IMG/VR virus record: IMGVR_UViG_3300032322_002907
DNA: 64,000 nt
Source: an uncultured virus (IMG/VR IMGVR_UViG_3300032322_002907)
Lineage: Duplodnaviria; Heunggongvirae; Uroviricota; Caudoviricetes
Reading direction: 5' to 3' (one strand)
Every line of letters starts with the position of its first letter. Position 1 is the first letter of the stretch. Below are positions 33,199 through 54,621 of this stretch, one piece after another. A program made the position numbers and the translations under genes. Below the pieces are notes generated by a model. It had not been told where the DNA came from. It searched no databases and worked only from the letters and a program-made list of their open reading frames with translations.

Positions 33199-33202
33199 GG
33201 CT

Positions 33203-33235
33203 GATAAATATTTGAGTGTAGATTAATTATTTATG
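33203..33235. promoter_or_regulatory. Pair of late-type promoters serving the divergent gp48 and gp4 genes (GATAAATA on +, CATAAATA on -)
   Basis: One-mismatch TATAAATA copies in the 39-bp gap between the two start codons. Confidence 0.6.
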
Positions 33236-33237
33236 GT

Positions 33238-38643: not shown

Positions 38644-38874
38644 TTACTCCTTGTCCTTATTAAGTTTAGATGTTTTGCGATCTACTGCAATGTAGGGCCA
38701 ATGTGAAATTTGGTCTGCAATGATCGCTTGATGTTGTGCAATTTTAACCATGTACTTTTGCATTTCGCGAATGGTCTCCGCAACAGTCAAATATCTTTCA
38801 TGAATGTCAATAACTTCTTTTTCAAGAGTATCAATTTTGGTTTCTAGACGTTCAAAGTCTTCCAATGAGTTCAC
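38644..38874 (-). CDS. Small coiled-coil hypothetical protein
   Basis: ORF overlapping the gp59 end. Confidence 0.55.
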   Translation of the reverse strand: MNSLEDFERLETKIDTLEKEVIDIHERYLTVAETIREMQKYMVKIAQHQAIIADQISHWPYIAVDRKTSKLNKDKE

Positions 38875-39445
38875 TGAACCTATCCTTTTTCATTTTGACG
38901 AAAGGGCTGTACTTCCTTATAAGTCTTGAAATATCGGGCCATACAAATGTCTCATCTATTTCTTTATCAAATTTTTCACAGAAATTGTACATTTTGTTTA
39001 GAATTACAAGAGTCTCGATTGTAATATCCTTACTCAAGTAAGCTCTTATTATATATGGGTGTTGATTTTTTTGTACTTCAAAGATTACAGCTTCGTCGAA
39101 CGCAGATAGATTCAACTCTTGAAGGACTCTTTGCATATCATTTTTAAATGTGTATGCAAGTGACTCGGTTCGTTTTTTCCAATTGAGATATGTGTCGTGC
39201 GCGCGCGTATCAAAAATACCGCCCCATTGATCTCCCGAAACAAAGTTCGACACAAGAAAGTTGATATATTCTTCGTCTTGAAATTGATTTGCCAACTTCG
39301 TATACAAGTTCTTTTGGCGCATGAATTTGTCATTCGACACTTTAATACGACCTTTATGTTTCACAACATCATAACGATCTGTGGTAAAATGCATACGAAG
39401 GGCAAGATAATAACGATAGGCCTTAAAGGCGTCCATGTTCATCAT
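38852..39445 (-). CDS. gp59: Helicase loader gp59
   Basis: Y..YLAL..HFT...YD..K..G, F.V.NF, I..ET..IL, KY.PF; between gp33 and gp32 as in T4. Confidence 0.88.
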   Translation of the reverse strand: MMNMDAFKAYRYYLALRMHFTTDRYDVVKHKGRIKVSNDKFMRQKNLYTKLANQFQDEEYINFLVSNFVSGDQWGGIFDTRAHDTYLNWKKRTESLAYTFKNDMQRVLQELNLSAFDEAVIFEVQKNQHPYIIRAYLSKDITIETLVILNKMYNFCEKFDKEIDETFVWPDISRLIRKYSPFVKMKKDRFSELIGRL

Positions 39446-39696
39446 AACGGAAGTTTACCTGTTTTCCTTTTGAAATAGTTTAGTTCCTCTGCCTCACATT
39501 GAATCTTCTCTTTGAGAGACTTATTCACCAGCGACTTGATTGATTCTACATCAATATCAGCCTCTTCGCAATAGTTGATGACAGCTTCCATGTAGGAAAG
39601 TTTTTTTGCCGTGACTAAACTTTCTATGTATAACGAAAATTCATTAGCAGTTGTAAACTTCTTTGAAATAATGAATTGATCTGTAAGTGTGTTCAT
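39442..39696 (-). CDS. gp33: Late promoter transcription accessory protein gp33
   Basis: FS..IE..V.....Y.EA...YCE...ID......L....LKEKI..EA..LN.....LP. Confidence 0.9.
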   Translation of the reverse strand: MNTLTDQFIISKKFTTANEFSLYIESLVTAKKLSYMEAVINYCEEADIDVESIKSLVNKSLKEKIQCEAEELNYFKRKTGKLPL

Positions 39697-40008
39697 TTGA
39701 ATAGAATAAGTGCCATGAAAACAGCGTTAACGATAAATCCTGCACCAATCGTCAAAACGTTAACAGTATCTTTTAAAATTGCAGCGCGAACAAAGAAAGT
39801 GACCAAAGCTGCCCAGATGAAAAGAACCAGATCAACAGGAGGCATCTTATCAGTTACACCTGCCATGACTGCTAGGAATGTAGGAATGAGTGCGGCGTGC
39901 AGGAGAACAATGCCTACCCACCCAATTGATTCGGCGGTGCTTGGTTTTAGTTTATGTTCAAAGAAGTCGAAAAGCGAACCCCTCAAAAGTGTTAGCTTTT
40001 CGAGCCAA
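39693..40008 (-). CDS. Membrane protein, ~3 TM segments (true start uncertain)
   Basis: AESIGWVGIVLLHAALIPT...P.DLVLF.W..L..FF..A...KD....TI..GF; the N-terminal part of the track ORF overlaps the hydrolase and is probably not translated. Confidence 0.6.
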
Positions 40009-40539
40009 TTAACCTTTGTAGAAGATGTGTTTTCCGATTTTGGCGACTCGTTGTTTTTTCCATCGGGGGTTGACATAGTCTGCATGATAGTATAGTACGT
40101 CCTCTGTGATGATTGATAGGCGGTATCCTTCAAGTAATACCTTTTTAGCCACAGCCTCGGATTCTTTATAGGTTGCTGCATGGATAGGTCTCACTTTAGC
40201 TTTTGAATCGCAATACCAACTAAATTGACATATGACATTATTGTATACTAAATTTCTTTCATATACAACTGCACATATATCTTTTGGAAATTTTCCTGAT
40301 TTTGTTCGATTGATTGTAACTTGTGCAACTGCTACTTTACCTTCAAAAGATTCGATACCTGCCTCATAGTAAATGTTTTTTGCCAGACAATCTATCTCCT
40401 TTTCACGTTGTGCCATAGTTACATAAGGGGGATGTTTTTCCTCTTTTACTTCTTCGAATTTGTGATGCACTAGATAAGGAAAATACTCATAAAGAATGCT
40501 CCCCAAAAAGAAAATGAAAACTATTCTTAATATAAACAT
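40009..40539 (-). CDS. Cell wall hydrolase, SleB/Hydrolase_2 family, with N-terminal hydrophobic anchor
   Basis: CLAKNIYYEA..E...GK.AVA.VT.NR....FP..IC.VVY, CQFSW, YYHA.YV.P.W......IG.H.FY. Confidence 0.9.
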   Translation of the reverse strand: MFILRIVFIFFLGSILYEYFPYLVHHKFEEVKEEKHPPYVTMAQREKEIDCLAKNIYYEAGIESFEGKVAVAQVTINRTKSGKFPKDICAVVYERNLVYNNVICQFSWYCDSKAKVRPIHAATYKESEAVAKKVLLEGYRLSIITEDVLYYHADYVNPRWKKQRVAKIGKHIFYKG

Positions 40540-40545
40540 AATACC

Positions 40546-40887
40546 TCATTTTTTATCACTGCTCTGTTTGGTCTTATTGACCACATCAATAATATCATGA
40601 TTCTTTTTTTGTGCATTGATGAAAATTTGAGCGACTAATGAAAGAACCCCCCAAGCAAGAAAGCCAGTAATAAACCCAAACATTAGAATCATATCAAACG
40701 TTTGATTCATTCCAAACCACTCTAGAATAGGAGTAGAAAATATTATACCTGTTCCTGTTGAGATACCTCCGCGTAAAGCTGCATCTAAAATTGTCGTTGG
40801 CTTCATGAACACCATAAGTGTCAACCCACCAATCAACCCACCCAATCCGGACATAATTTTAGCTGTTAGAAATCCTGGTTCAGGCAT
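40546..40887 (-). CDS. Membrane protein, possible holin (3 hydrophobic segments, basic C-terminus)
   Basis: Hydrophobicity pattern; directly upstream of the cell wall hydrolase. Confidence 0.5.
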   Translation of the reverse strand: MPEPGFLTAKIMSGLGGLIGGLTLMVFMKPTTILDAALRGGISTGTGIIFSTPILEWFGMNQTFDMILMFGFITGFLAWGVLSLVAQIFINAQKKNHDIIDVVNKTKQSSDKK

Positions 40888-40898
40888 AACATTTTCCT

Positions 40899-40940
40899 TA
40901 AAAAAATAAAGCGGGTTATTCTGTTACGAGGAAACCCACC
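40899..40940 (-). terminator. Hairpin/terminator at the end of the tmRNA coding piece
   Basis: GTGGGTT...AACCCGC followed by TTTATTTTTTT on the minus strand. Confidence 0.6.
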
Positions 40941-41212
40941 GAAACCCTAGGCTGTGTTTAGGCAGCCAATGCTACGTCAAAGACGCTTTCGTTTGCATTT
41001 ACGTTTTTTTACTTTTAACGACTATCTGTGTCGAATCGTCCATCTTCTTACTTATTGCCCCGTCGAAACCAGGTCAGGCCCATCAGAAATATATTAGGAC
41101 ACAGTTTTCCCACTTCGACGTTAGAGTGTCTTATCGGGCTAATATACTTCTGGTGGACCTGGGCGGAATCGAACCGCCGTCCGAAACACCTTTCAGTCAA
41201 CTTCAAACGATC
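40911..41212 (-). ncRNA. ssrA: Circularly permuted (two-piece) tmRNA; tag ANESVFDVALAA* at 40996-40958
   Basis: Acceptor piece ends ...GGCGGTTCGATTCCGCCCAGGTCCACCA (3' end 41151) upstream of the 5' strand GGGCCTGACCTGGTTTCGAC (starts 41081); acceptor stem with G3.U70; resume context TAAAT-GCA; C-terminal ALAA. Confidence 0.92.
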
Positions 41213-41219
41213 ATTTTGT

Positions 41220-41227
41220 TATTTATA
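41220..41227 (-). promoter_or_regulatory. T4-type late promoter TATAAATA upstream of the tmRNA
   Basis: Exact consensus immediately 5' of the tmRNA acceptor piece. Confidence 0.75.
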
Positions 41228-41824
41228 TCAAACGTAATGTAGATAACTATGCGCGTACATCAAAGAACCGCCATCCCGGCATTTTACCTCATATGGATAA
41301 AGCCAATGCGGAGGAAAAACAAGAATAGAGCCTTTTTTCGGAATAATGTCTGTGATTCCTAAAGTTGGAAATCTAATATAACCATTTTCAGCATCAGTTA
41401 GGAATACAAAAACAGACAAAAATCTTTTCGCAGATTTATGGTCATTCACATCACTATGTAGATTATAGAAATCTTGATCTGTAAACTTTTTGATTTTTAT
41501 ATTCTCAAACCCTTGCAATTCAGGAACAAGAGGTAGTTGAGTGCCTTGAAAGTAATTTGAAGCGGCTGAGAAAAACAACTCAGAAAAAACATCTTGAAGA
41601 TGCAAAGGTGTAGTCGTTAAATCATTTTCTGTAACTTCAGGCAATTCCCAGTGGGAATGCTCTGTAACAATAGCTTGCTTAAATTTAAATTTTTCATTCG
41701 TAATATCTTCAAACGTTGCATTCTCAACCACAGACATAATATCTTGGCAAGTTTCTTCGTCTAAAATATTTTCATACAGTTTAACGTAATTGTGTAGGTT
41801 GCCCAAGACGTTTCCCCTTTTCAT
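41228..41824 (-). CDS. 2OG-Fe(II) oxygenase-like protein (distal His apparently replaced)
   Basis: LHSD, RFLS.F..L, FP....PKKG..LVFPP.W.YPY. Confidence 0.75.
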   Translation of the reverse strand: MKRGNVLGNLHNYVKLYENILDEETCQDIMSVVENATFEDITNEKFKFKQAIVTEHSHWELPEVTENDLTTTPLHLQDVFSELFFSAASNYFQGTQLPLVPELQGFENIKIKKFTDQDFYNLHSDVNDHKSAKRFLSVFVFLTDAENGYIRFPTLGITDIIPKKGSILVFPPHWLYPYEVKCRDGGSLMYAHSYLHYV

Positions 41825-42116
41825 CAACTAATTCAAAATCTGACCCTTCAAGTAAAATACAAGAAGTGTTTTTACCTTCTGCTGATATTGTAACACTGAA
41901 ATCGTTAGTTGTCAATGATTTCCAAAAGATTACTAAATACTTTTCTTTCGTTTGTGCTACAGCGATAGGTCTTTCCTTATGTGTTTTTCTTAACTCATTT
42001 ACAATGTAAGATGTTTCACTACACGCGGCTTGAAAATTTAAGAAAAGAACATTAGGTGTCTGTGCATACGTACCCATCGAGAACATCATCAAGGTAGCCA
42101 GGATTATTTTTTTCAT
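41781..42116 (-). CDS. Exported hypothetical protein (signal peptide)
   Basis: MKKIILATLMMFSMGTYA signal peptide; two Cys. Confidence 0.6.
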   Translation of the reverse strand: MKKIILATLMMFSMGTYAQTPNVLFLNFQAACSETSYIVNELRKTHKERPIAVAQTKEKYLVIFWKSLTTNDFSVTISAEGKNTSCILLEGSDFELVDEKGKRLGQPTQLR

Positions 42117-42774
42117 AAAGGTCCCTATAATAGATTAGTTGGTTAATGTAATTGTTTCGCTTCTCAACAAAAACTTGGACAGGATCATTTTCACAAGCAA
42201 TTATGATAACGATCTTAGTTACAGGTATTCCAGTCAGTTCTTCGTACATTACAGCGTACGCTGAACATTGCATAAAGTAATTTTCAATGTATTGTTTTTG
42301 TTTTCGTTTAGACGATGTCTTAAAATCTATTACGCTTAAACGACCATTATGCTCCGCTATACAATCAACGGTCCCTGCCAATCTCAAATGTTCTGAGTAT
42401 AACCGTTGTTCCTGTAGATGTATATTATCAATATCCTCCAAAGCAGGTTTTATACTGCGAAAAAGTTCTTTGTCAAATAAAGATATTTTAGGATTGCTAA
42501 ACGGATCTTCATTTTGCAAATACTTTTCACAGAGGCTGTGCAATCGTGTGCCGCGTGCCGCTGCTGTAGTAGCTATGTAACTCGCCCGATCTTTCCCGAC
42601 TTTCTTTCGCCAGGCATCCAATGACTCTTTACCATATTCCTGCAATACTGTTGTGACGGAAGGAAATTTATTCCCCGAAGGCGTTACATAAATTCTCTTG
42701 CCGGTTGCAGGATTTGTTAATTGTTTGAGCTTTGGAATTTCGGGCGGGTTACTTATAGCGTTGTACAATTTCAT
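42052..42774 (-). CDS. PD-(D/E)XK exonuclease (Cas4/Exo5-like phage exonuclease)
   Basis: PSVTTVL, RGT.LH...E.YL, AGTVDCIA, IDFKTS, Q..AYA. Confidence 0.88.
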   Translation of the reverse strand: MKLYNAISNPPEIPKLKQLTNPATGKRIYVTPSGNKFPSVTTVLQEYGKESLDAWRKKVGKDRASYIATTAAARGTRLHSLCEKYLQNEDPFSNPKISLFDKELFRSIKPALEDIDNIHLQEQRLYSEHLRLAGTVDCIAEHNGRLSVIDFKTSSKRKQKQYIENYFMQCSAYAVMYEELTGIPVTKIVIIIACENDPVQVFVEKRNNYINQLIYYRDLYEKNNPGYLDDVLDGYVCTDT

Positions 42775-42987: not shown

Positions 42988-43722
42988 CTATGCATTCTCC
43001 TCGTATTTTAGTCTTGCTAATATGTATTGCTTTACAATGTCACTTCTCACAATGTCATCAACTGAAAACTCGACCATCTTGAATGACGGCATCATCTTCG
43101 CGATTGCAATAAACTTTTTCAGTCCCGACATATCATGCTTTTTATTCAGATCGGTTTGTCTAAAGTCTCCGCAAAAGATGATTTTTGAATTGTGACCTAC
43201 GCGAGTCATGATTGTGTTGATCTCAGAATCCGAAAGATTTTGACACTCATCTACTATGACCACGCTGTTATCTAGTGTCACACCCCGCAAAAACGAAGTG
43301 ATCAGAAAGTGACATACGCCTTGTTCTTGTAGACGTTGAAAAGCATCGTTGCGATTGAATAGATTGCTACAGATTTCTACATAGGGCTCTTTGTATACGT
43401 CTGTCTTTTCTTTTTCATCTCCTGGTAGGTGACCAATCTCCCGTGAGGGGACTGCAGAACGAACTATGATGACTTTATCATATACAGACTCTCTATCAAG
43501 TGCTTCTTCTAGTGCTTTGTACAAGGCAATATACGTCTTTCCTGTACCTGCCACACCGTGTAGAAGAATAAACTCACGACCCTCTTTATAGTGTGTAAAG
43601 AAGGTTTGTTGATTGTCTGTGAGGGGAGATATAACGTCCATATCGTCTAGTCTCAGTTTTAAACGATTGGATGCCAATGTCAAATGTGGTTGGCGTTGTT
43701 CTTTTTCTTGTCTTTTTGCCAT
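42988..43722 (-). CDS. phoH: PhoH-family ATPase
   Basis: G.AGTGKTY, RSAVP..EIG.LPG...EK, FLRG.T.DN....VDE.QN, TRVG..SK..F.GD..Q.DL, DIVRS. Confidence 0.93.
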   Translation of the reverse strand: MAKRQEKEQRQPHLTLASNRLKLRLDDMDVISPLTDNQQTFFTHYKEGREFILLHGVAGTGKTYIALYKALEEALDRESVYDKVIIVRSAVPSREIGHLPGDEKEKTDVYKEPYVEICSNLFNRNDAFQRLQEQGVCHFLITSFLRGVTLDNSVVIVDECQNLSDSEINTIMTRVGHNSKIIFCGDFRQTDLNKKHDMSGLKKFIAIAKMMPSFKMVEFSVDDIVRSDIVKQYILARLKYEENA

Positions 43723-43737
43723 GGAGCCCTCTAAAAT

Positions 43738-43766
43738 GAAAAAAGACAGCGTTGCATTGCTGTCTC
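43738..43766 (-). terminator. Intrinsic terminator after the FmdB-like gene
   Basis: AGACAGC-N8-GCTGTCT followed by a T-run on the minus strand. Confidence 0.6.
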
Positions 43767-43793
43767 TTCTGGTTAGCGGAATTATTCTAGCAA

Positions 43794-44054
43794 TCATCTG
43801 GAAAGTTTATTGTTCAGATTGCTTTTTGGTTGAGATTCGTGAATTTTTGAAAGCACCTCCCTAAATCCGTTGTCTACTGTTCGAACACCCAAACGAACGG
43901 AATCGCCGACTCCTGGCGTCCCGATTAGAAGTTGAACTGAATTTTCGCCGCAAGAAGGACAAGGTTGCTCTTCGGGCGTTTTACGGTCTGCAATCATAAA
44001 CTTTTCTGTAAAAGTATGATCGCATTTTTGGCAGTTGTAATCGTATAGTGGCAT
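43794..44054 (-). CDS. FmdB-family zinc-ribbon protein
   Basis: MPLYDY.C..C.H.F...CP.CG. Confidence 0.8.
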   Translation of the reverse strand: MPLYDYNCQKCDHTFTEKFMIADRKTPEEQPCPSCGENSVQLLIGTPGVGDSVRLGVRTVDNGFREVLSKIHESQPKSNLNNKLSR

Positions 44055-45785: not shown

Positions 45786-45979
45786 GAATAGTCGCCGTTT
45801 ACTTGACCGAGAATGTAATTGGTGACCATTTCCTGACCCACCTCACCTTCATCCCACAGGTCGGCGGGGGCTTGCAATCCGAAAGCGTAGTTAGGACCCA
45901 CCCACCAGTTTTTTACCAGGTCCTCTCGACCCAAAAGAGAATGGAGGACCTGGTTCAATTGTTCTTTTGATGCATTCAT
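45782..45979 (-). CDS. Orphan MbcA/ParS/Xre antitoxin C-terminal-like domain
   Basis: LLG..DLV..WW..PN.AFG...P.DL....G...V..Y pattern. Confidence 0.6.
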   Translation of the reverse strand: MNASKEQLNQVLHSLLGREDLVKNWWVGPNYAFGLQAPADLWDEGEVGQEMVTNYILGQVNGDYS

Positions 45980-46086
45980 TTGAGTCCCCAAAGCAAGAAT
46001 GCGACCCCCGCAAGAGTCGCTACTAGATATCCCAGAGCTGCTGAACTCATGGACACTGAATAGAAAAGTTGTTTAAGACGTTCCAT
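45976..46086 (-). CDS. Small membrane peptide (36 aa)
   Basis: MERLKQLFYSVSMSSAALGYLVATLAGVAFLLWGLK*; read by hand. Confidence 0.45.
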   Translation of the reverse strand: MERLKQLFYSVSMSSAALGYLVATLAGVAFLLWGLK

Positions 46087-46397: not shown

Positions 46398-46898
46398 TCA
46401 CAGAACTTCGTTAGGATATTCTTCTGTGGGCCTAAAACGATATTGTGGCTTATCGGGTTTAACATATGGAAAGGTCACTGGCACACGTGATTCAGAACAA
46501 CTGAAGTAACTCTTGAACATTTTACCATCTTCATCTGATTTATACCACTCCCAGAATACGATTCCATCGATATCGTAGGCACCGTTTTCGTCTTTAAATA
46601 CTGAACTGCATCGTTTGTTCTGCCACAAAGGAGAGCCGTTTCTATCTTCAACATCGCTCCATTCCCACTCTTCACCCGTTAGTGGTGCAATAGGATTAAA
46701 CATTGCCAGTTTAGTGAAAAGATTAATTGTATATGGGGCAGATGAGCCAGAATGTCCTTCGTTTTCAAAAACTGCAAGAAGACCTAAAACATGCAGACAA
46801 ATATCTTTTTGCATCTCATCATGAAACTGATTATTCTCATCAACCCAACCTGCTGCACGAAACTCAGTCCATGCATGTCTTTCATAATTATTCATCAT
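46398..46898 (-). CDS. Conserved phage hypothetical protein
   Basis: F..EGHSG.SA, P..PLTG...EW, QNKR...VFK. Confidence 0.7.
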   Translation of the reverse strand: MMNNYERHAWTEFRAAGWVDENNQFHDEMQKDICLHVLGLLAVFENEGHSGSSAPYTINLFTKLAMFNPIAPLTGEEWEWSDVEDRNGSPLWQNKRCSSVFKDENGAYDIDGIVFWEWYKSDEDGKMFKSYFSCSESRVPVTFPYVKPDKPQYRFRPTEEYPNEVL

Positions 46899-54216: not shown

Positions 54217-54621
54217 CTATTTTCTGAGGGTTTTTAGGTGAGATCCGTGGATTCTACAGTGGATTAAATTGTTGTACCACTCGGTCGGATATTCTAGAAC
54301 CCTTCGATCTATTTGTTCACGCAATTCAAGGTAGGAGAGCTCACCCTTCCCAAAGCACAAATGCACGATTTCACGCTTAAAATTTTCTTCACCGAGGTTT
54401 TTTACATCTTGTTTTAGTTCATCTGATGAGGACCAATAAGTTTTCCAATCTGATTCAACCTTAAATCGTTTCTTCTTACCTTTTACTTGTTTAGTCCTTG
54501 ACGACCAAAATAATTTCTTTCCTATATATCGTCGATTTGTTTTTAAACAGGTAATCAGATAAACAAAACCCACATACTTATCAATTGATTCTTCAAATTC
54601 TCTATTCTGATATAACCACAT
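54217..54621 (-). CDS. GIY-YIG-fold protein conserved in T4-like phages
   Basis: GFVY.IT.....R.YIGKK, ESDW..Y..S, F.REI, YN..I. Confidence 0.75.
   Translation of the reverse strand: MWLYQNREFEESIDKYVGFVYLITCLKTNRRYIGKKLFWSSRTKQVKGKKKRFKVESDWKTYWSSSDELKQDVKNLGEENFKREIVHLCFGKGELSYLELREQIDRRVLEYPTEWYNNLIHCRIHGSHLKTLRK

Follow-up and report, generated by a model that had tools for sequence, protein, structure and literature searches.

The window analysed here, a stretch of 64,000 nucleotides from an uncultured virus of the Caudoviricetes (IMG/VR record IMGVR_UViG_3300032322_002907), carries on its minus strand what is very probably a functional two-piece (circularly permuted) transfer-messenger RNA (tmRNA) gene of the beta-proteobacterial structural type, lodged in a freshwater T4-like myovirus in the slot between PhoH/nuclease and gp33-gp59-gp32. 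It is the single RNA gene called by ARAGORN in the 64-kb window (permuted tmRNA, tmRNA*, 40867-41243(-), tag ANESVFDVALAA*), and the same program called no tRNA genes there. The Rfam model RF04321 (tmRNA_permuted) reaches 137.4 bits, where the cut-off is 47 (E 7.6e-27), in an alignment that begins at 41212, and RF01850 (beta_tmRNA), the top model in the tmRNA clan, scores 115.7 bits against a cut-off of 84 (E 1.7e-34). A first-pass annotation, made from the letters alone, had proposed a phage-borne permuted two-piece tmRNA and named ARAGORN and the Rfam covariance models as its check; both were run and bear the proposal out (a permuted call, both models over their cut-offs, beta_tmRNA best), and every landmark that it had read on the minus strand was found in place when verified base by base. 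The novelty that it implied did not stand, since passages of PMC9004378 already describe two-piece tmRNAs of aquatic T4-like phages and the same slot holds one in the phages Melnitz and HTVC008M. The window gene is thus a real, complete and structurally well-supported two-piece tmRNA that adds to an already described phage cargo.

The assignment of the window to a T4-like myovirus follows from PHROGs and Pfam matches to gp32, gp59, gp33, baseplate proteins of the gp5/6/7/8/25/53 type and a gp61-type primase, alongside PhoH, NrdA/B, RNase H and ThyX. Its gp32 is ~55% identical to gp32 of cyanomyophages, Pelagibacter phage HTVC008M and Methylophilales phage Melnitz, its G+C content is 35-41% and ~92% of it is coding. 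Public sequencing runs tagged as freshwater or lake-water metagenome hold near-identical DNA: 37-81% of the sampled words are present in 14 DNA runs with the label metagenome, freshwater or lake water, and 12-20% in six riverine RNA runs.

Structure and covariation of the tmRNA

All parts of a working two-piece tmRNA can be read on the minus strand. The acceptor piece (41151..41214; placed by sequence reading, Rfam and the fold) holds the 5' P2 strands, the T-arm GGCGG-UUCGAUU-CCGCC and then the 3' acceptor strand CAGGUCC, the discriminator A and an encoded CCA ending at 41151. It is followed by an intervening segment of 69 nt (41082..41150; sequence reading and fold), presumably removed in processing, which is closed by a 12-bp helix of GAAGUAUAUUAG (41150-41139) with CUAAUAUAUUUC (41097-41086) that prolongs the acceptor stem, and which ends in a UGAU leader (41085-41082) before G1. 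The coding piece (40900..41081) begins with the 5' acceptor strand GGGCCUG (41081-41075), pairing with CAGGUCC in a 7-bp stem with G3.U70, and runs on through the 3' P2 strands, a short hairpin (41033-41017), then the resume codon GCA (40996-40994, preceded by a UAAAU that agrees with the Rfam consensus), the tag open reading frame (ORF) encoding ANESVFDVALAA plus TAA (40996-40958, stop 40960-40958; ARAGORN and sequence reading), a 3' hairpin of 7 bp with a 15-nt loop (40939-40911) and, directly after it, the U-run UUUAUUUUUUU (40910-40900). The tRNA-like domain is therefore complete, with a G3.U70-bearing acceptor stem of 7 bp, a T-arm, the discriminator A and CCA; the gene is circularly permuted, its 3' acceptor half ending in CCA ahead of the 69-nt segment and its 5' acceptor half coming after it; and the tag frame has its alanine resume codon, hydrophobic ALAA end and TAA stop. 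The 69-nt segment with its closing inverted repeat, the G3.U70 alanine determinant and the succession of resume codon, tag, hairpin and U-run had each been read in the first-pass annotation and are confirmed at these positions.

The precursor has a minimum free energy (MFE) of -95.2 kcal/mol (z = -3.15), a stability equalled by 0 of 100 shuffles, and the MFE fold shows one continuous stack of T-arm, acceptor stem and closing helix. RNAalifold on 30 phage sequences yields 46 consensus pairs. Compensatory changes support 30 of these pairs, among them pairs of the P2 helices and T-arm, two pairs of the acceptor stem and pairs of the helix that closes the intervening segment; the acceptor-stem G.U pair is invariant in all 30 sequences. 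The closing helix covaries across the 30 sequences (alignment columns 166-174/225-233), and its contiguous pairs have a median of 10 when each sequence keeps its own ends versus 4 when ends are mixed between sequences. The leader bases GAT before GGG are likewise invariant (30/30), with a first base that is T in 28 and A in two (L028 and L013; L numbers are our locus handles). Inside the helix the intervening segment is hypervariable, the window being only 37-47% identical to L015, L011, L023 and L002, and a variable interior within a maintained closing helix is the signature of a putative processing substrate under selection.

The 3' hairpin was not called by a simple terminator scan because its loop exceeds 8 nt. 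The U-run that follows it is peculiar to the window; the relatives have AACCCACC with a ribosome-binding site right behind it, which makes it likely that their tmRNA forms the 5' portion of a longer late transcript. The hairpin loop CCUCGUAACAGAA is common to the alpha-type RNA of HTVC008M (L117 1700-1745) and the beta-type RNA of the window (40950-40911), and the stem covaries; this conserved loop might pair in a pseudoknot or bind a protein.

The possibility of a chance match, or of a decayed fragment of a host tmRNA acquired by the phage, can be regarded as negligible. The Rfam E-values for the gene span 1e-27 to 1e-36, the acceptor and coding pieces are both complete, compensatory changes preserve nearly two-thirds of the consensus pairs across relatives (the 30 of 46 given above), and the bacterial genomes examined hold no close copy, the best being ~69% identical over 173 nt. 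We found no point in support of such an origin, and it was rejected on the ARAGORN call, the Rfam scores and the covariation.

A family of viral permuted tmRNAs

A single narrow pattern (T-loop, CCA, a gap of 55-85 nt and UGGUUUCGAC) matched 54 viral contigs in IMG/VR, and ARAGORN called a permuted tmRNA in 54/54. Rfam models were run on 39 of these loci, 15 having been omitted as apparent duplicates; all 39 passed RF04321, and beta_tmRNA was the best clan model over its cut-off in 38, the exception being L042. At least one flanking gene is held in common with the window in 35 of the 54 contigs. The tags of the relatives fit the pattern ANDE.FALAA, as do records from Cupriavidus, Azoarcus and Gallionellaceae, and the 12-residue window tag ANESVFDVALAA is found in only one other viral locus, L006. 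Two viral contigs have tRNA genes within 1.5 kb of the tmRNA (L026, 1212-1284; L036, 157-228 and 628-699).

Such genes are known from phage surveys. Passages of PMC9004378 report tmRNAs in 402 of 18,146 phage genomes, representing 133 unique structures, 53 of which were two-piece by ARAGORN, 50 of those being from marine or aquatic phages; they also report a permuted tmRNA in 17 of 47 Melnitz-cluster contigs, and according to the legend of Figure 5 the three permuted lineages are common to their phages as well. In the part of PMC11915505 consulted, 79 unique tmRNAs from bacteriophages are given, along with 11,946 permuted sequences. Our literature search for a tmRNA of a freshwater T4-like phage under a late promoter returned nothing closer than PMC9004378, PMC11915505 and PMC3037559, supplements (including Table S1 of PMC9004378) lying outside that search.

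Promoter and timing of expression

T4 late motifs usually sit a few bases before the start of the transcript. The window has such a motif, TATAAATA (41220..41227, minus strand), ~6 nt before the predicted 5' end of the RNA, and the window tmRNA is probably transcribed from this T4-type late promoter, to judge by the position and conservation of the motif. The heptamer 5'-TATAAAT-3' is taken as the T4 late motif for cyanomyophages in a passage of PMC3037559, and PMC9004378 cites this motif too. There are 12 NATAAATA sites in the window, of which four sit 24-30 nt before structural-gene starts (4792(-), 22160(-), 33203(+) and 33228(-)), and six of the ten closest aligned sequences, the window included, keep NATAAATA at an unchanged distance ahead of the tmRNA. 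The forms are TATAAATA in the window and L015, AATAAATA in L006, L023 and L002, and GATAAATA in L049, and L030 is grouped with L023 as a bearer of NATAAATA at the tmRNA offset; farther upstream of the motif, the sequences of the closest relatives are unrelated (16-32% identity). The gene for a gp33 late-transcription coactivator lies 1.2 kb downstream of the tmRNA, and a promoter scan called no sigma-70-like site upstream of the window gene. The T4 late promoter of the first-pass annotation is in this respect plausible (offset kept, four structural genes, gp33); the count of the motif is at chance level, and the support is comparative and short of proof. Unlike the superposed versions described below, the window promoter looks late-only.

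Two of the NATAAATA sites form an outward-facing pair (33203+ and 33228-) in a 39-nt intergenic gap (33199-33237), with a virion gene starting 27-29 nt beyond each, and these are likely divergent late promoters.

Several observations tell against late expression as the general reading. The bare motif TATAAATA occurs four times in the window versus 6.26 expected, with at least four in 87 of 100 shuffles, and since this is not above chance the case for the promoter rests on position and conservation. Among 41 unique viral loci, NATAAATA stands at the tmRNA offset in only nine, the others having sigma-70-type promoters or no recognisable promoter; near-consensus sigma-70 promoters occur in at least six unique loci (L001, L003, L017, L019, L024 and L036), and in L003, L017 and Melnitz a sigma-70 promoter and the late motif are superposed. 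Late expression is therefore no family-wide rule, and promoter class, as far as motifs tell, varies within the phage tmRNA family. The TATAAA within the motif could also act as a -10 box. Contigs from RNA libraries span the acceptor piece, intervening segment and coding piece, and these belong to relatives (with an L015-type flank) and are uninformative on transcription, ends and cleavage in the window phage.

These points bear on a different account, in which the gene is expressed beyond the late phase, through read-through from upstream or with TATAAA serving as a sigma-70 -10 element, and in which a match to the late motif says little about timing. In addition to the near-consensus sigma-70 promoters of the relatives, this account draws on the Melnitz promoter, where TTGACA-N17-TATAAATA at the same position (L105 6224-6252; MZ577097.1 ~45979-46007) superposes sigma-70 and T4 late elements and is treated as early only in the passages of PMC9004378 concerned, on the absence of a recognisable promoter in HTVC008M, and on the upstream 2OG-Fe(II) oxygenase ORF, whose TGA stop (41230-41228) abuts TATAAATA with a gap of 0 nt. 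However, no -35-like hexamer upstream of the window gene passes the scan, the closest relatives keep an ATAAATA core rather than TATAAT (AATAAATA in L006, L023 and L002, GATAAATA in L049), and the same motif precedes four structural genes. We regard expression beyond the late phase as unlikely, if deserving of serious weight, and a late promoter as the probable one for the window gene.

Near-identity with a second phage

One reservation concerns the ownership of the gene rather than its nature. From 41212 to 40913 the window and L006 are identical at 300 of 300 aligned bases, the hypervariable intervening segment included, with two 1-nt indels (window 41003 and 41116), while outside this interval identity drops to 16-21% and the flanking proteins are 56-72% identical. 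L023/L030 have flanking proteins closer to those of the window (69-83%) yet a clearly different RNA (37% identical to that of the window over the intervening segment and 81-87% over the two pieces), and the promoter and leader of the window are identical at 18/18 positions to L015, not to L006, L015 itself differing in intervening segment and tag. In run X1 the depth is ~10-11 over the window flanks versus 42.7 over the L006-type interior, which makes cross-assembly possible. No contig in JGI metagenome_contigs, a set that may lack the record of the window itself, joins the window promoter to the window intervening segment, and elsewhere in IMG/VR the cassette occurs in the L006 contig only.

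Taken together, these data could mean that the gene is real but that ~41212-40913 is not the phage's own, either through an assembler crossover via a more abundant L006-type phage in the same community, for which identical stretches (the 62-nt acceptor piece and a 45-nt 3' region) would offer a route, or through recent recombination of the whole cassette. This we consider a less probable explanation, albeit one that has to be reckoned with. The window and the L006 type differ at the two indels. Over window 38800-40999 a second IMG/VR record, G001, matches at 100% identity and so ties the downstream flank to the tag ORF; it reaches 42 nt beyond the common 3' region and ends at window 40999, exactly beside one of the indels, in an A-run (as G001 ends within the tmRNA gene, the missing RF04321 match there carries no meaning). 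Contigs from X1, moreover, join both window flanks to the gene ends. Under exchange and cross-assembly alike, a tmRNA gene occupies the slot in the window phage.

If exchange is the cause, a self-contained tmRNA cassette, from RNA start to 3' hairpin, may pass between freshwater T4-like phages that occur together, always into the same slot. We offer this tentatively. It fits with the same 300-nt RNA gene being present in two phages whose neighbouring proteins are 56-72% identical, with promoters that are late-type, sigma-70-type or superposed according to lineage, and with alpha- and beta-type RNAs in the same slot. Were it true, phages would swap and re-time their ribosome-rescue RNA, perhaps after host shifts or against RNA-cutting defences. 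Run X1 contains several related tmRNA variants at different depths, and tmRNA genes can act as assembly break or cross-over points among co-occurring phages.

Bacterial counterparts

A degenerate back-translation of the 12-residue tag gave 0 matches in 185,579 species genomes. A search by structure pattern found 50 bacterial loci (in Cupriavidus, Gallionellaceae, Oligella, Stenotrophomonas, Variovorax, Herbaspirillum and others), 48 of which ARAGORN called permuted; the viral and bacterial patterns used different gap ranges, so that intervening-segment lengths are not comparable between phages and bacteria. The nearest bacterial gene found has ~69% identity over 173 nt, in the coding piece, and BLAST against 401 genomes of one order matched 83, all within ~30-50 nt of the tRNA-like domain; one of the 401 genomes is unpublished, and nothing stated here depends on it. 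Assignment of a host by tag, structure pattern or BLAST was dropped, as none of these routes led to a close bacterial copy. Nine Stenotrophomonas records (L060, L061, L066, L067, L071, L080, L085, L091 and L099) carry permuted tmRNAs with long unusual tags (e.g. ANADYYDQNEQDTLLAA).

Proposed mechanism and role

To act, a tmRNA needs SmpB, alanyl-tRNA synthetase (AlaRS), RNase P and proteases. Pfam detected no SmpB in the 62 window ORFs (15 + 47), the rest of the genome, where SmpB or gp55 may be encoded, being outside that scan; none was found in G001 or in five related phage records either, four of these with a completeness of 90% or more. This agrees with the first-pass annotation, which had seen no smpB in the window. 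Since no SmpB was found, the phage presumably depends on that of its host.

Host RNA polymerase, redirected by phage late factors, would start at ~41214, ~6 nt past TATAAATA, to give a precursor of ~310 nt; folding and covariation show the acceptor stem of this precursor running into the 12-bp helix that closes the 69-nt segment. The Caulobacter two-piece tmRNA is the model for the cleavage of such a precursor: host RNase P would cut before G1 (41081) and 3' trimming would halt at the encoded CCA (41151), leaving an acceptor piece of ~64 nt and a coding piece of ~175 nt joined by the P2 helices. Host AlaRS would then charge the RNA via G3.U70, and host SmpB and EF-Tu would bring it to stalled ribosomes, where translation would resume at GCA and append ANESVFDVALAA, with the ALAA end flagging the product for host proteases. 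The likely benefit is that ribosome rescue is sustained late in infection, when host transcription is off and demand for virion proteins is at its peak; countering of RNA-cleaving defences and assistance to long structural genes, both raised in the first-pass annotation, are speculation.

The RNA might instead be turned against the host, by competing for SmpB or by tagging host proteins for amino-acid recycling. The latter is raised in a passage of PMC9004378, and an RNA of mycobacteriophage DS6A that is tmRNA-like and lacks a coding sequence is reported, in the part of PMC11915505 consulted, to inhibit endogenous tmRNA; the absence of the 12-residue tag from all of the species genomes searched would also be in keeping with such a role. 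Although the sequence offers nothing to tell hostile use from rescue, every feature of a working tmRNA is kept in the window gene, including the protease-type ALAA end, and we consider hostile use improbable and ribosome rescue the preferred role.

Genome context and the tmRNA slot

The gene order is PhoH, PD-(D/E)XK nuclease, a 111-aa ORF, the 2OG-Fe(II) oxygenase-like ORF and the tmRNA, followed by a 113-aa hydrophobic protein, Hydrolase_2, a 162-aa ORF, gp33, gp59, two small ORFs and gp32. PhoH (42988-43797(-)) and the nuclease (42052-42774(-)), both identified by PHROGs and Pfam, form the conserved left border of the tmRNA slot in the window phage, in Melnitz and in many IMG/VR contigs. 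In cyanophage S-CREM1 the nuclease gene abuts gp33 with no tmRNA between them; given the tmRNAs of Melnitz and HTVC008M, the nuclease-gp33 junction is therefore a variable slot that often bears a tmRNA. The oxygenase-like ORF (41228..41827(-); phrog_61, 5.4e-18; PF13640, 24.3 bits, under the cut-off) is a variable accessory gene, present in L023/L030 and absent in L006.

Downstream of the tmRNA, the 113-aa hydrophobic protein (40546-40887(-), from its translation), the Hydrolase_2 cell-wall hydrolase (40009-40539(-); PF07486, 85.6 bits; phrog_938 endolysin) and the 162-aa ORF (39693-40181(-), putative start), whose C-terminal half has three hydrophobic stretches in translation, may together constitute a candidate lysis module (39693..40887). 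The 162-aa ORF and the hydrolase ORF overlap by 173 nt, and both frames are retained in L015, L023 and L002. The gp33-like late-transcription coactivator, a component of the apparatus for reading T4-type late promoters, lies at 39442..39696(-) (PF16805, 84.2 bits, cut-off 25).

Farther off, a 166-aa ORF (46398-46898(-)) matches Tad3 (PF25185; 112.6 bits, cut-off 27), an inhibitor of type I Thoeris, and is a candidate anti-defence gene, and a SegE-like GIY-YIG homing endonuclease (54217-54621(-); PF19835, 133.4 bits) sits amid nucleotide-metabolism genes.

Significance

That phages carry tmRNAs suggests that ribosome rescue can limit phage yield; to our knowledge, nobody has shown when or why phages need a copy of their own. 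In kind the locus adds little, Melnitz, HTVC008M and many database phages already having a tmRNA. What it contributes is a comparison set in which one slot holds alpha and beta types, at least three promoter arrangements and, in some lineages only, a riboswitch, and which, given a cultured host, would allow timing (early or late) and RNA type to be weighed for their effect on phage fitness. Most notable are this variation of RNA type and promoter class at a single conserved position and the near-identity of the cassette across divergent phages, which also stands as a warning on the metagenome assembly of related phages.

Comparison with known systems

The closest described counterpart is the ssrA gene of Melnitz (MZ577097.1 gene 86; Buchholz et al. 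2022, PMC9004378), like the window gene that of a T4-like aquatic myovirus. The Melnitz order of PhoH, PDDEXK nuclease, two small ORFs, tmRNA SsrA, gp33, gp59 and gp32 defines the same slot, and its RNA is permuted too (RF04321, 113.4 bits), with a helix-closed intervening segment, a tag ending in ALAA and TATAAATA just upstream of the RNA, as in the window. The two differ in RNA type, Melnitz being alpha-type (RF01849, 106.7 bits) and the window beta-type (RF01850, 115.7 bits), and in their surroundings: Melnitz has a consensus TTGACA -35 box, which the window lacks, and its tmRNA is followed directly by a glutamine riboswitch (RF01739, 52.8 bits), whereas Rfam found none in window 40500-41500 at E up to 1. 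Downstream, the window has its U-run terminator and the candidate lysis module where Melnitz has gp33 directly. At the DNA level the Melnitz gene is not alignable with that of the window, and blastn of the window gene gave no match in 50,697 phage records.

In HTVC008M (KC465899.1, 145161-145370) a permuted tmRNA lies beside the record end adjoining gp59, again in the same slot. It resembles the window gene in having a closing helix and then UGAU before G1, and in its 3' hairpin loop CCUCGUAACAGAA, but is alpha-type by Rfam (83.8 bits), encodes the tag ANFNEYALAA, has a shorter intervening segment and is without both a late-promoter motif upstream and a U-run after the hairpin.

The bacterial beta-type two-piece tmRNA (RF01850), for which Sharkady and Williams (2004) is reportedly the reference, has the same secondary-structure plan, and the window gene scores over the cut-off of that family. 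The differences are that the 69-nt intervening segment of the window needs a 52-nt insertion relative to the Rfam consensus, and that the Rfam model includes a sigma-70 promoter, whereas the window gene resides in a lytic phage behind a promoter of the late-phage type.

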